From Escherichia coli (GTDB taxonomy: Bacteria; Pseudomonadota; Gammaproteobacteria; Enterobacterales; Enterobacteriaceae): DNA of 64,000 nucleotides. The position numbers were made by a program, and so were the translations under genes. The stretch is from assembly GCF_013315695.1 (NCBI RefSeq), contig NZ_CP054353.1; one strand, given 5' to 3'. Shown here in pieces: positions 60,837 to 64,000 of this stretch. Every line of letters starts with the position of its first letter. Within the stretch, counting starts at the first letter, position 1. Below the pieces are notes generated by a model. That model saw only the letters and a list, made by a program, of their open reading frames with translations, did no database searches and was not told the DNA's origin.

Positions 60837-61157
60837 TCAGGCTTTTTCTAGCGTACACAGCAATGGATGCTCATTCTCCCTCGCGTACTTGTTCACCATC
60901 GCCACTTTGGTTTCTGCAACCTCGGCGGTAAAGACTCCGCAAATGGCCTTCCCCTGGTAGTGAACAGCGAGCATCAATTGCGTTGCACGTTCTACATCAT
61001 AAGAAAAGAATTTTTGTAACACGTCAATAACAAACTCCATCGGAGTGTAATCATCATTGACTAATATCACTTTATACATAGATGGCGGTTTTAGCGCGTC
61101 GCGAACTTTTTCTTCCGCCAGTTGATCAAAGTCCAGCCAGTCGTTCGTTTTACCCAT
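60837..61157 (-). CDS. clpS: ClpA adaptor ClpS
   Basis: 106 aa, [43 protein letters not shown]... Confidence 0.98.
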
Positions 61158-61330
61158 TGTCAGTTATCATCTTCGGTTACGGTTATCGGCAGAACGCCCT
61201 GCCGCTGACAAGAGCTTATTTGCCTGACCAATCTACTCCACATGATAGATAACTATCATTTATAACATCTCATTGATTAGTCTTTATTTTTCATTGTGTT
61301 ACAAATAACAGCTCTGTCAAAAACAGCGAA

Positions 61331-61727
61331 ATTAACTACACCATTAACTACACCGTTTCACGAACAATATCGAACAACCACGAACAAAGATCAACACGCT
61401 TTAACCGTTATCATTTTCCGGCTATCCGTTATGAAGCTGGTGGATGTTCCCCGATATGGGGATCCCCACCTACCGGAATTTTTGCCAGGTTAAATGTTAA
61501 CCTCTGCCCTGTTAACATTTTTACCAAAAAGGTAGTTAACATTTTTTGCACGCAACCAGATGAATCATAAAGAAAAAATCAACAACAACGCTTCATCAGG
61601 CAGTTAACATGTTAACTACTACGAAACGGTAATTTTTTCTCTGCGTGAGAGGGGGCGCGGTGTCCAGCTTATTCGTTGTTCGTGGCTAACCACTCCCCCC
61701 CCATGCCGGATTTTTTTTCCGGTTAAC
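61331..61727. repeat. Iteron-like field of three short repeat families
   Basis: ATTAACTACACC x2 (61331, 61344). CGAACAA x3 at exact 10-bp phase (61361, 61371, 61381) plus one inverted copy (61676-61682). GTTAAC x6 (61496, 61511, 61535, 61603, 61611, 61722). Confidence 0.8.
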
Positions 61728-61748
61728 TGTTAATCAGGCTGGTGGGTT

Positions 61749-62037
61749 TTACATACCCTTGATCACCGTAATGATGATCCAGATCTGCACATTTCCACCA
61801 ATGGTGGAAAAGCCCACAGCAGGCCGCCCAGCCTCCACCAATGGGGTAAAAGCATCAACCGTAACGAAAGTCGTTATGGTTGCCACCGATACCCCAAATT
61901 TGGGTATCACGAGTAAGCCCCAAAATCTGGGTGTTACTCTTACCACCCAAACTACGGGTAGTTTCCGTAGTTTCATGGTCGAGTTGCAGATCTGCAACTC
62001 CCCCATTAACCACAGGCGAATTTCCGCCTTCGGTCAT
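61749..62037 (-). pseudogene. Small ORF split by a frameshift (60-aa plus ~38-aa parts)
   Basis: MTEGGNSPVVNGGVADLQLDH...GNHNDFRYG* continues in the +1 frame as VTVDAFTPLVEAGRPAVGFSTIGGNVQIWIIITVIKGM*. It contains the 20-bp palindrome at 61981-62000. Confidence 0.3.
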
Positions 62038-62293
62038 TCCTTAATCATCTGCGTAATCATAATGATTATTCAGCAAGCGCAATTTTGCGCTTTGCTTAAA
62101 GTTCAGCGAGTTACCGCGCCGACTTCCTCAAATTGAGGTTTCCGAAAATATCAGCGGGTTAGCGATTAAGCTGATCATTAATTAAACTGCGAAAATTTCG
62201 TAGTTTGTGACTGTCTTTCAGGCAGCTTGTTAACAGTCCTCAGAAGCGAGGGATGTAGCCACCCATTTTTGGTCCGTCGGGAATATCAACCAG

Positions 62294-62575
62294 TTACCGC
62301 CGCAACCGCTCCGGCTTCTTCCAGTGGTACGTTATTTTCTCCTTCTCCCGATACATCTCCACGCGGCGACGGTAGGCCAGCAACTCAAGAACTCTGGTTC
62401 GTATGTTGCGCATATCCACGCCATTAAGTTCTATACCATCACGGCGCATCACCTCCGCAACAACACGCGCATAATTTTCAGCGGTCACGCTGTCCGGCTG
62501 CGTGGCCTGTTCGTCAACCTGCTGGCTGATTCCGGCAACGCGGCGGATTAATCCCAGTATTTCGGCTTCTGTCAT
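62294..62575 (-). CDS. Hypothetical protein (93 aa) adjacent to cos-1
   Basis: Clean ORF MTEAEILGLIRRVAG...; its start lies 65 nt from the cos-1 cohesive-end sequence. Confidence 0.55.
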   Translation of the reverse strand: MTEAEILGLIRRVAGISQQVDEQATQPDSVTAENYARVVAEVMRRDGIELNGVDMRNIRTRVLELLAYRRRVEMYREKEKITYHWKKPERLRR

Positions 62576-62609
62576 TGTGCCCCCATCGTTCTGATAGTCT
62601 GGTGTCGTC

Positions 62610-62835
62610 GGGTCCTTCCTGGAATTATGGCCCGTTACGGGGCGGCGACCTCGCGGTTTTTCGCTATTTATGAGATTTTTTGAGGGGGTGGTTGTTGTTT
62701 AATTGTTTGGTATATCTAATTGATAAGTAAGGTAAAAATAAAATAAATACAACAACCTTACGATGTATTTTGATGTCATTAATGTGAAAAAATTCAATGA
62801 TATCAAATGGTTTTGTAAAAACACATGGTTGTTGT
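62610..62835 (+). other. Lambda-type cos site 1 (cosQ-cosN-cosB-like)
   Basis: gggtccttcctggaattatggcccgttacg|GGGCGGCGACCT(62640-62651)|cgcggtttttcgctatttatgag, followed by GGTTGTTGT at 62690(+), 62749(-) and 62827(+). Confidence 0.7.
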
Positions 62836-63028
62836 ATCGCGTATTTGATGGCGTAACAGAAAGTGATTTTTAACTTTACCGCTCTGTAACTACGGATTAT
62901 TCCATGCTGGCACGGAGAACGGCTACGGCATGACGCCACCCAGCCTATACAGCACAGTAAAGCCGATAAATTGTTAATCACGCGCAGCAATGCGTGTGAT
63001 TTTTGCACACTTCCGGTTAACGGGTACG

Positions 63029-63206
63029 ATGTCCGGTTTTAGTGTCTGTTTTTTGCGCATGTCCGGTTCATAGAAAGCATGTTTTTATATTTTTCATATG
63101 GTTAACTTGCAGAGAAACCGGACATGGATCCCGGAAAATTTTCATAAATAGTGAAAACGCGCGAGGTCGCCGCCCCGTAACGGGTCCATATGCCGGAAAG
63201 GACCCG
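63029..63206 (-). other. Lambda-type cos site 2 (cosQ-cosN-cosB-like), opposite orientation
   Basis: The minus strand reads cgggtcctttccggcatatggacccgttacg|GGGCGGCGACCT(63175-63164)|cgcgcgttttcactatttatgaaaattttccgg. Then ATGTCCGGTT motifs follow at 63116-63125 (inverted), 63059-63068 and 63029-63038. Confidence 0.75.
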
Positions 63207-63207
63207 T

Positions 63208-63233
63208 AAAAAAAAGCCGGATTTCTCCGGCCT
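63208..63233 (-). terminator. Intrinsic terminator between the 137-aa gene and cos-2
   Basis: The minus strand reads ggccggag-aaa-tccggc plus T8. Confidence 0.7.
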
Positions 63234-63237
63234 TGTC

Positions 63238-63651
63238 TCAGATGGTTTTCAGTATGCGATCGATGTCGCCGTCATCGCCCTGGTTTCTGCCATCGTACGC
63301 CATGCCAGCTGATACGGCTTGCGGGCTGTGCATGTCCATAAAGTTTTCAAAGGCTGCGGTAAGCTCTGGTGCAACCTTTGGGCGCTCCTGCTCTATGGTC
63401 ATGTTCAGGATTTCACGAGCATTATCGACGCTAATACATGGCACGTTTGCCATTGCACGTAACAGCGGCTGATAGTCGTTATGTTCATGAAGCGCCATAA
63501 TCGCATCAGCGCGCGGCTTGTCCTGTTCTTCCAGTTTGTTGAGTTGATATACGGCCTCGTAGGTTGATAAACCTCTGTCAGCCATTGCCCGCGCTTCTGC
63601 TTTAAATTTACTCGCCAGCGGTAGCGCCATGATGCTTTCATTCGTTGCCAT
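63238..63651 (-). CDS. Hypothetical helical protein (137 aa), last gene before cos-2
   Basis: Clean ORF MATNESIMALPLASKFKAEARAMADRGL... No recognisable motif. Confidence 0.6.
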   Translation of the reverse strand: MATNESIMALPLASKFKAEARAMADRGLSTYEAVYQLNKLEEQDKPRADAIMALHEHNDYQPLLRAMANVPCISVDNAREILNMTIEQERPKVAPELTAAFENFMDMHSPQAVSAGMAYDGRNQGDDGDIDRILKTI

Positions 63652-63663
63652 CGTTTCCCCTGC

Positions 63664-63999
63664 TTATCGCGCCAGCGGCTGAACGGATACGCCAGAACCC
63701 GCAAAGGCGGCGCATTTTTTCGCGTCAGTGTCGGCGCTCTCAGGCCAGTTTACGGCGGCGATATTAAATATCCCCGTCTTGTAACACTGTGCTGATTTCT
63801 GCTTTGACGTGTCCACGGGGTACGAAGTCAGATAAACAGCCTTGCCAGATTCCTGACCATCCCACGGCTTAAACTCGCCATTGTCCGCCAGCATCAGCGG
63901 GGTAAATTCCTGAATAACGCCAGCATCAGCGGCAAAATGTACCAGCGTCGTGGATACCTGCTGACTGCCTGCAAATAACTCAATGTATGGAGTGTCCAT
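63664..63999 (-). CDS. Head decoration protein, lambda gpD family
   Basis: 111 aa. TPLML, WDG, YKTGIF, WPE and KK..AFAG blocks align with remembered lambda gpD (TPLML..WDG..YKSGTF..WPE..KKRTAFAG). The start is 1 nt from the window edge. Confidence 0.75.
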   Translation of the reverse strand: MDTPYIELFAGSQQVSTTLVHFAADAGVIQEFTPLMLADNGEFKPWDGQESGKAVYLTSYPVDTSKQKSAQCYKTGIFNIAAVNWPESADTDAKKCAAFAGSGVSVQPLAR

Positions 64000-64000
64000 A

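Follow-up and report, generated by a model that had tools for sequence, protein, structure and literature searches.

A gpD-family decoration gene and a Nu3-like putative mini-scaffold gene beside a lambda-type cos site in an Escherichia coli island of the EcCICFT073 family

Introduction

At the end of a 64,000-nucleotide stretch of Escherichia coli DNA (NCBI RefSeq assembly GCF_013315695.1, contig NZ_CP054353.1; hereafter the window), two genes on the minus strand lead directly into a lambda-type packaging site, cos-2. The first encodes a 111-aa protein resembling the lambda head decoration protein gpD, whilst the second encodes a protein of 137 aa. What kind of element carries these genes, and what might they do beside a cos site? 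An original prediction, made from the window alone, assigned them to a satellite and proposed that the 137-aa protein, together with a 93-aa protein beside a second site, cos-1, interferes with packaging of a helper phage. Here we report that the gpD-type and 137-aa genes very probably conclude the capsid module of a phage-inducible chromosomal island (PICI) that measures 11.2 kb, is packaged from cos sites and belongs to the EcCICFT073 family, a judgement that includes the inferred steps of packaging and shell assembly set out below.

Results

The 111-aa protein (63664..63999, minus strand) is a member of the lambda gpD/SHP family PF02924, as seen in its Pfam, PHROG and PDB matches; trimer formation and capsid binding are putative properties. 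It matches the Pfam model HDPD at E 1e-17 (64.7 bits vs a cutoff of 29.1, residues 8-103), PHROG 49 'head decoration' at 4e-27 and the solved structures of the phage 21 protein SHP (6e-13; 1TD0) and lambda gpD (1e-9; 1C5E), being 37% identical to the latter. The clear gpD homologue that had been predicted at this position is therefore confirmed.

The element runs past the end of the window, as had also been predicted, and its continuation was taken from E. coli strains CEA601S and NCTC9112, which carry an island at the same chromosomal site and to which the last 2.9 kb of the window are 99.9% and 99.8% identical, respectively. Comparison with the empty site of K-12 gives an island of 11.16 kb inserted between clpS and yljB/cspD, with yljB and then cspD adjoining its integrase end in both strains. 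The K-12 sequence aligns to window position 61263 and picks up again on the far side, overlapping by 21 bp, which puts the island's first position at 61264. The attL core, TGATAGATAACTATCATTTAT (61243..61263, no strand), is one copy of this 21-bp direct repeat (D11) and the second lies after int, so that precise 21-bp att repeats stand at both ends. On the minus strand the order is int, alpA, an icd-like gene, DUF4222, a DUF927 replication gene, an iteron-bearing origin (ori), ssb and perC, followed by a terminator, a 68-aa gene, a gpE-type capsid gene, the gpD-type gene, the 137-aa gene and a further terminator. These are succeeded by cos-2, a 0.5-kb spacer, the convergent cos-1, the 93-aa gene, about 1 kb that is apparently non-coding, and att. 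The integrase, which lies outside the window and was read from the relatives, is of the tyrosine type with an arm-binding domain, and the AlpA regulator encoded downstream of it matches PF05930 (Phage_AlpA) at E 1.7e-16. The replication gene product is a 710-aa DUF927 protein; directly downstream of its gene are iterons, TGCGGGTTAT, and inverted repeats (L001 25375-25703, repeats D2/D5), a putative replication origin. SSB and PerC are likewise encoded in both relatives. Just past the end of the window, directly upstream of the gpD-type gene, these relatives have a major capsid gene whose 351-aa product is of the lambda gpE type (full-length identities of 43% to lambda E and of 43-47.5% to gpE across lambda, phage 4 and PhiR12). 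The annotation tables of the two relatives contain no portal, terminase, tail or lysis genes in the 11.16-kb island.

The island therefore has the features by which Gram-negative PICIs are recognised (Fillol-Salom et al. 2018): its own integrase with flanking repeats, alpA, a replication gene then ori, a small size (about 10-20 kb in this class), unidirectional genes and a lack of lysis and tail genes. It is a Gram-negative cos-type PICI of canonical layout, and the proposal that the gene order fits a satellite and not a lambdoid phage holds, given int, AlpA, DUF927, SSB and PerC without portal, terminase, tail or lysis genes. A lambdoid ancestry of the E, D and Nu3-like genes and of the cos sites could also be expected if, instead of a satellite, the region were what is left of a lambdoid prophage head operon after decay or rearrangement. 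However, unlike such a remnant, the element is compact (11.16 kb), carries int, alpA, a replication gene and an ori of its own, and is bounded by precise 21-bp att repeats. Moreover, all of its ORFs (open reading frames) are intact, with ratios of non-synonymous to synonymous substitution (dN/dS) of 0.1-0.27, the same module is found in 596 genomes and at four chromosomal sites among the relatives examined, and its close relative EcCICFT073 has been mobilised experimentally (PMC6092414). A prophage remnant is refuted by the architecture of the island and we give it virtually no probability.

By its architecture, the island belongs to the EcCICFT073 family, as an rpp-less variant. The prototype, from E. 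coli CFT073, has the same order (68-aa gene, c1499, c1500, c1501, cos, convergent cos, 93-aa gene) and a like layout of alpA, replication gene, ori and perC. The encoded proteins are 95% (capsid, c1499), 97% (decoration, c1500) and 93% (137-aa protein, c1501) identical between the two elements, and both carry the cohesive-end 12-mer of lambda at cosN. The island thus has two lambda-type cos sites and homologues of c1499, c1500 and c1501, and is without rpp and without a cosB of the cos1 type. It also differs from the prototype in its integration site (clpS/yljB vs next to phoQ) and in its replication gene, which is of the DUF927 type in the island, whilst EcCICFT073 alone has rppA (c1503, 144 aa) between its two cos sites. 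Capsid and head-decoration homologues and two functional cos sites have already been described for EcCICFT073, for which helper-phage-induced excision, replication and high-frequency transfer have been shown experimentally (PMC6092414).

What, then, is the 137-aa protein (63238..63651, minus strand)? Its ORF is separated from that of the 111-aa protein by 12 nt and is preceded by an AGGGGA ribosome-binding site. The original prediction took it to be unrelated to head genes, yet PHROG, BLASTP, HMMER and hhalign comparisons all lead to the Nu3/gpC proteins of lambdoid phages. Lambda Nu3 is a head scaffolding protein encoded in frame within the gpC protease gene, as its C-terminal part, and nu3 is annotated as a nested gene. 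The 137-aa protein matches PHROG 1999 and also PHROG 53 (head maturation protease), the latter only at the C-terminal end of the profile (494-567 of 583). By BLASTP it is 36-37% identical over 83 aa (2e-10) to residues 416-493 of a 501-aa gpC, the comparison proteins being the gpC-type protease/scaffold of CFT073 prophage 4 and that of phage PhiR12. An exhaustive HMMER scan of 1.84 billion representatives gave 8 matches, one of which, at E 7e-5, is a stand-alone protein of 195 aa with Nu3-like repeats, and the 137-aa family aligned to an alignment including lambda Nu3 with an hhalign probability of 96.3% (E 1.6e-9). Direct BLASTP against lambda Nu3 gave no significant match, and so the kinship is visible only through the gpC proteins of phage 4 and PhiR12 and through profile comparisons. 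The elements common to the 137-aa protein and Nu3/gpC are a repeat motif (IMAL..E.......A..P..SV..AR.IL) and the tail FE.FM..HSP, with residues 45-92 matching the helper repeats at z 4 to 10. By these similarities, the 137-aa protein is homologous to the C-terminal scaffolding region of Nu3/gpC, with one clear repeat and the tail, and it may act as a scaffold. With a Nu3-like protein at this position, the island has genes for all three components by which a lambda-type shell is defined, namely the capsid and decoration proteins and a short scaffold.

The C-terminus of the 137-aa protein, DRILKTI, is invariant and PICI-specific. A word-indexed protein search returned close E. coli relatives only, and tblastn found no homologue of the PICI type among 50,697 phage records. 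NCBIfam held no match for the gpD-type, 137-aa, 93-aa, 68-aa or capsid proteins. Many homologues of the 137-aa protein are called 'phage head-tail connector protein' by RefSeq/PGAP (P0001, P0004, P0007 and others; L002, L005, L007), a name for which there is no Pfam or NCBIfam model support and which is probably a holdover from 'head-tail preconnector', once used for gpC/Nu3. No published statement of a Nu3-like assignment for the c1501 family was found in the searchable literature.

We also considered whether the 137-aa and 93-aa proteins are Rpp-type interference proteins that retarget the helper small terminase to the island cos sites, as had been hypothesised. Their genes flank the cos sites, where EcCICFT073 keeps packaging functions; both proteins are PICI-specific and under purifying selection, and the 93-aa protein has no assigned function. 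However, genuine Rpp in relatives is a separate helix-turn-helix (HTH) protein of 137-146 aa whose gene lies between the cos sites, and in the 144-aa CFT073 protein (RppA) the published residues R21-T22 and L51 are present. A Nu1-like winged HTH is absent from both the 137-aa and the 93-aa protein, as is similarity to RppA, RppB or RppC. Against an alignment of four Rpp proteins their hhalign probabilities were 0.3% and 0.1%, respectively; neither has an HTH Pfam match, and neither has a PDB match, whereas RppA matches the RppC structure (6HLK) at 5e-31. Moreover, the 137-aa protein is Nu3-like. Lastly, Rpp has been identified as c1503, and when each post-ori gene of EcCICFT073 was over-expressed only c1503 blocked lambda (PMC6739421). 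An Rpp-type role for the two small proteins is largely refuted and we regard it as very improbable.

The 93-aa gene (62294..62575, minus strand; PHROG 1561) is conserved after the second cos site in all relatives examined. Its PICI-specific product is found in 1027 clusters, with a single marginal, partial match (E 9e-4, tblastn) in the same 50,697 phage records. A three-helix protein is predicted (pLDDT, the predicted local distance difference test, 66); the model had no Foldseek match with E <3 and no fold match to 6HLK or Nu1. The approximately 1 kb between attL and this gene (61264-62293) contains no convincing gene. At 61749-62136 both strands carry overlapping ORFs (54-125 aa), which matched no family and were treated as non-coding; only a 52-aa hypothetical protein is annotated in this segment in CEA601S/NCTC9112, and nothing in the other relatives examined. 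The segment is a mosaic with parts common to many islands, and 61713-61846 is 95.5% identical to the end of EcCICFT073.

Downstream of the 137-aa gene, an intrinsic terminator (63213..63234, minus strand) ends the transcription unit of the capsid module. A consensus scan and folding energy identify a 9-bp GC-rich stem and T-run after the stop codon (dG -17.9 kcal/mol, z -3.4), the same element, read 63234->63213, that had been predicted as a strong terminator at 63208-63233. The cosQ side of cos-2 follows directly, again as predicted. The core of cos-2 (63164..63207, minus strand) has exact lambda matches at lambda spacing, namely the lambda-identical cosQ-side 15-mer ACGGGTCCTTTCCGG at 63207->63193 and the exact lambda cohesive-end 12-mer GGGCGGCGACCT at 63175->63164, and is 96% identical to lambda over +1..+45. 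The chance expectation of the exact 12-mer is approximately 0.008 in the window on both strands (128,000 positions / 4^12). Convergent with cos-2 is the cos-1 core (62608..62651, plus strand), comprising the cosQ-like TCGGGTCCTTCCTGG and the cohesive-end 12-mer at 62640-62651; the convergence is also seen as an inverted repeat (I1) of 72 nt, 83% complementary, with arms 454 nt apart. Rfam gave nothing credible in 61100-64000.

The two cos sites differ in their cosB. In EcCICFT073, cos1 lies directly upstream of rppA, is Rpp-dependent and has a cosB of the CACCACCACCAC type, whilst cos2 carries ACCGGACAT repeats (Fig. S1A, PMC6739421). The island lacks both the Rpp-dependent cos1 cosB and rppA, the latter having left only a relic, and its phage-type cosB lies at the cos site after the 137-aa gene. 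This cos-2 cosB (63012..63163, minus strand; PhiR12 / EcCICFT073 cos2 type) is 94% identical to the cos2 cosB of EcCICFT073, in inverted orientation, and has R-like ACCGGACAT repeats at 63117-63125 (inverted), 63059-63067 and 63029-63037. The cos site by the 93-aa gene instead has a different, AT-rich segment of the GGTTGTTGT type (62652..62875, plus strand; 30% GC), which is cosB-like and common to other PICIs and contains three GGTTGTTGT elements, at 62690, 62827 and, in inverted orientation, 62749. The segment is 98.3% identical in the PICI of strain Ch1 and 84% in many others, and had no match past the cos core in the phage collection.

Where might the cos-2 type of cosB come from? Over 184 nt (63212->63029), the window is 94.1% identical to the cos region of the lambdoid phage PhiR12_1 (PV340549), with a like cosQ-cosN-cosB series that includes an R3-like element, an AT-rich stretch and two R-like ACCGGACAT elements. 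The two diverge after the last common R element, where the island runs into an antisense rpp tail; a fourth, partial R-like copy, AACCGGA, at 63012-63018 lies past the end of the PhiR12 match. In the phage the Nu1 gene lies directly downstream of the cos region, whereas the island has no terminase gene there. An identity of 94% between the cos-2 cosB and PhiR12 suggests direct helper mimicry. We found no published statement of a phage origin for the cos2-type cosB in the searchable literature.

Searching with RppA by tblastn, we found a relic of the 3′ end of rpp (62897..62944, minus strand), which retains the last 15 codons in sense orientation (62944->62897), translates as AGWRHAVAVLRASME followed by a stop, and matches RppA residues 123-145 at 74% identity. 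This was the sole RppA match, and no intact rpp is present in the window or in the whole island as read from CEA601S. The segment between the cos sites (62652-63163) therefore consists of the PhiR12/cos2-type cosB, a short antisense rpp tail, the 15-codon sense relic and the GGTTGTTGT-type cosB, and is partly inverted relative to EcCICFT073. A 114-aa ORF with a GTG start (62664-63008, minus strand) has no family match, is unannotated in relatives and was treated as non-coding. Ten complete genomes have this gene-less cassette at 97-99.8% identity and at two or more attachment sites, and they include tRNA-Pro/yejM PICIs with another integrase and other replication modules. With the same cassette in ten genomes and several islands, it is not a private or one-off deletion.

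The inter-cos segment is variable among relatives, with rpp present in CFT073, NCTC86 and Ch1. In SCU-106 the inter-cos gene (L002 13707-14249) encodes a full 180-aa small terminase of the Nu1 family, 34% identical to lambda Nu1, and the other cos site has a cosB resembling that of CFT073 helper phage 4. GB089 has a 69-aa ORF (L007 2730-2939) with a PhiR12-Nu1-like start followed by the middle of Rpp, a chimeric Nu1::Rpp stub that looks like a phage-PICI recombination scar. Strain STEC2018-607 (L012) carries two related PICIs, at clpS/yljB and tRNA-Pro/yejM, with differing inter-cos cassettes.

Median dN/dS rose from 0.10 (gpD-type gene) and 0.12 (capsid gene) to 0.24 (137-aa gene) and 0.27 (93-aa gene). 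These low values argue that the module is kept by selection, although laboratory knockouts of close homologues have no phenotype. The segment with the gpD-type and 137-aa genes was found in 596 of 5426 complete E. coli genomes, 590 of which cover at least 80% of it, and the module lies at four different chromosomal sites among the relatives examined. With this query, up to 5 copies of the module were seen per genome. The order 68aa-E-D-134aa-Rpp-94aa is retained in a relative whose homologue of the 137-aa protein is only 41% identical.

Several further features lie outside the window or near the island ends. The 68-aa protein is of the same length as lambda gpW, but has no Pfam support as a gpW relative and was not compared with gpW directly; we do not retain that assignment. 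Just upstream of its gene is a perfect 15-bp palindrome (AATCATAACTGGATG / CATCCAGTTATGATT; L001 24203-24234), and between perC and the capsid module there is a near-copy (L001 24385-24411, family D8) of the terminator found after the 137-aa gene. From the palindrome and the terminator copy, the capsid module appears to be a transcription unit under separate control. Just inside both ends of the island (window 61324-61396, L001 31174-31246) is an imperfect direct repeat of 73 nt, D1 (AAATTAACTACACCATTAACTACACCG...), which may represent arm-type binding sites of the integrase; as an att site it was ruled out, the K-12 empty site showing the 21-bp repeat to be the core.

Discussion

How might such an island be packaged, and what part might its capsid module play? 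We hypothesise that after helper induction the island would excise, replicate and form concatemers, and that the helper terminase would start at cos-2, whose cosQ-cosN-cosB copies that of a PhiR12-type lambdoid phage. Packaging could then proceed without Rpp, by helpers whose own small terminase recognises a PhiR12-type cosB. Starting from cos-2, it would proceed in the direction of the 93-aa gene and on around the unit, leaving the gpD-type and 137-aa genes to be packaged last; a lambda-sized head would hold approximately four units (44.6 kb) when full. The island's capsid, decoration and mini-scaffold proteins would serve as a cognate shell kit and assemble jointly with the helper's portal, protease, terminase and tail, the 137-aa protein chaperoning the island's own capsid protein and the gpD homologue stabilising that lattice. 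Of the two inferred steps, co-assembly of the shell kit is the weaker and the least secure.

A different use of the same genes would be to redirect capsid size or to build the island's own capsids, as Ccm does in SaPIbov5, giving small or island-specific particles that exclude the helper genome. Three proteins of shell geometry are indeed encoded and the module is co-conserved as a unit; moreover, the scaffold homologue is shorter than that of the helper, with one clear repeat as opposed to three or four in gpC. There are also precedents in SaPIbov5 Ccm and PmCI172, satellite capsid homologues that give small capsids (PMC8569155, PMC6092414). However, the EcCICFT073 DNA packaged by a lambda helper was all of phage size, and deletion of c1499 or c1500 neither relieved interference nor reduced transfer (PMC6092414), whilst nothing in the sequence predicts a T (triangulation) number. 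We consider redirection of the capsid unlikely, and prefer a shell kit within a cos-packaged PICI.

A number of observations weigh against this preferred reading too. In EcCICFT073, deletion of c1499 or of c1500, whose product is 97% identical to the 111-aa protein, leaves transfer and lambda interference intact, a c1501::tetA insertion abolished neither, and the island DNA packaged by lambda was of phage size (PMC6092414). Given these published knockouts without phenotype, a structural role of the capsid module is putative, as is the decoration of hijacked capsids that had been hypothesised for the gpD homologue. The N-terminal 44 residues of the 137-aa protein bear only a weak likeness to a second, degenerate repeat (p ~0.01), and the single-sequence AlphaFold model of this protein (pLDDT 41) is unusable. 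No helper prophage was found in the window; the record of strain CEA601S has the PhiR12-type cosB at one place, and no second copy. Lastly, the chromosomal flank is only about 98% identical between the window and CEA601S, and since the island beyond 64000 was read from other strains, the distal modules of the window's own island could differ.

Assignment to a well-characterised satellite family removes the false lead of an Rpp-like 137-aa protein. The Nu3-like assignment and the phage origin of the cos2-type cosB are incremental additions to this known family. Beyond the papers that could be searched, three modest points emerge. The c1501 family is of the Nu3 type, so that the capsid genes of these PICIs form a coherent capsid-decoration-scaffold module under purifying selection. 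The Rpp-independent cos2 of EcCICFT073 is a near-copy of the cosB of a real lambdoid phage (PhiR12 type), a position at which another relative has a cosB like that of CFT073 phage 4. Lastly, rpp-less islands with a PhiR12-type cos occur at several chromosomal sites. Taken together, the Nu3-type, cosB and rpp-less points suggest testable ideas about helper range and about the retention of capsid genes that have no laboratory phenotype.

A bolder reading holds two separate ideas: that the minimal shell kit acts with natural helpers, and that an rpp-less lineage spreads by its copy of a phage cos alone. We consider this reading unlikely. Were it correct, the kit of capsid, gpD and mini-Nu3 proteins (with the 68-aa protein perhaps included) would, with natural lambdoid helpers and not with lambda, build island-specific and possibly smaller capsids on the helper portal. 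The rpp-less lineage would have given up terminase retargeting and would carry a near-exact PhiR12-type cos instead, and the second cos of EcCICFT073-type islands would generally be a swappable helper-mimic cassette.

Compared with the head genes of lambda itself, the island has a full-length gpE homologue (43%), a gpD/SHP homologue (37%) and the Nu3/gpC repeat and tail, in the order E-D-Nu3-like, whereas lambda has C/Nu3-D-E. Unlike lambda, it has no protease domain and no portal, terminase, FI/FII or tail genes, and its scaffold-like protein of 137 aa with one clear repeat contrasts with 201 aa for lambda Nu3 and approximately 170 aa for the gpC C-terminus. SaPIbov5 is a cos-type Staphylococcus aureus pathogenicity island (SaPI) that likewise combines a copy of the helper cos with Ccm, a homologue of the helper major capsid protein (PMC8569155). 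Ccm demonstrably redirects capsid shape and size, whereas the E. coli module is not known to have a phenotype, and SaPIbov5 has no gene of the gpD or Nu3 type, unlike the island.

The set carried by capsid-forming PICIs (cf-PICIs) comprises portal, protease, head-tail connectors and terminase. None of these was annotated or found in the 11.16-kb island, which, unlike cf-PICIs, has capsid, decoration and scaffold-like proteins only. It resembles them as a PICI that encodes capsid proteins of its own, and cf-PICIs are described as encoding all of the proteins for capsid production and packaging (bioRxiv 10.1101/2022.09.08.507074). If the shell kit does act with natural helpers as in the bolder reading, it would place islands of this kind between the classical PICIs and the capsid-forming PICIs.

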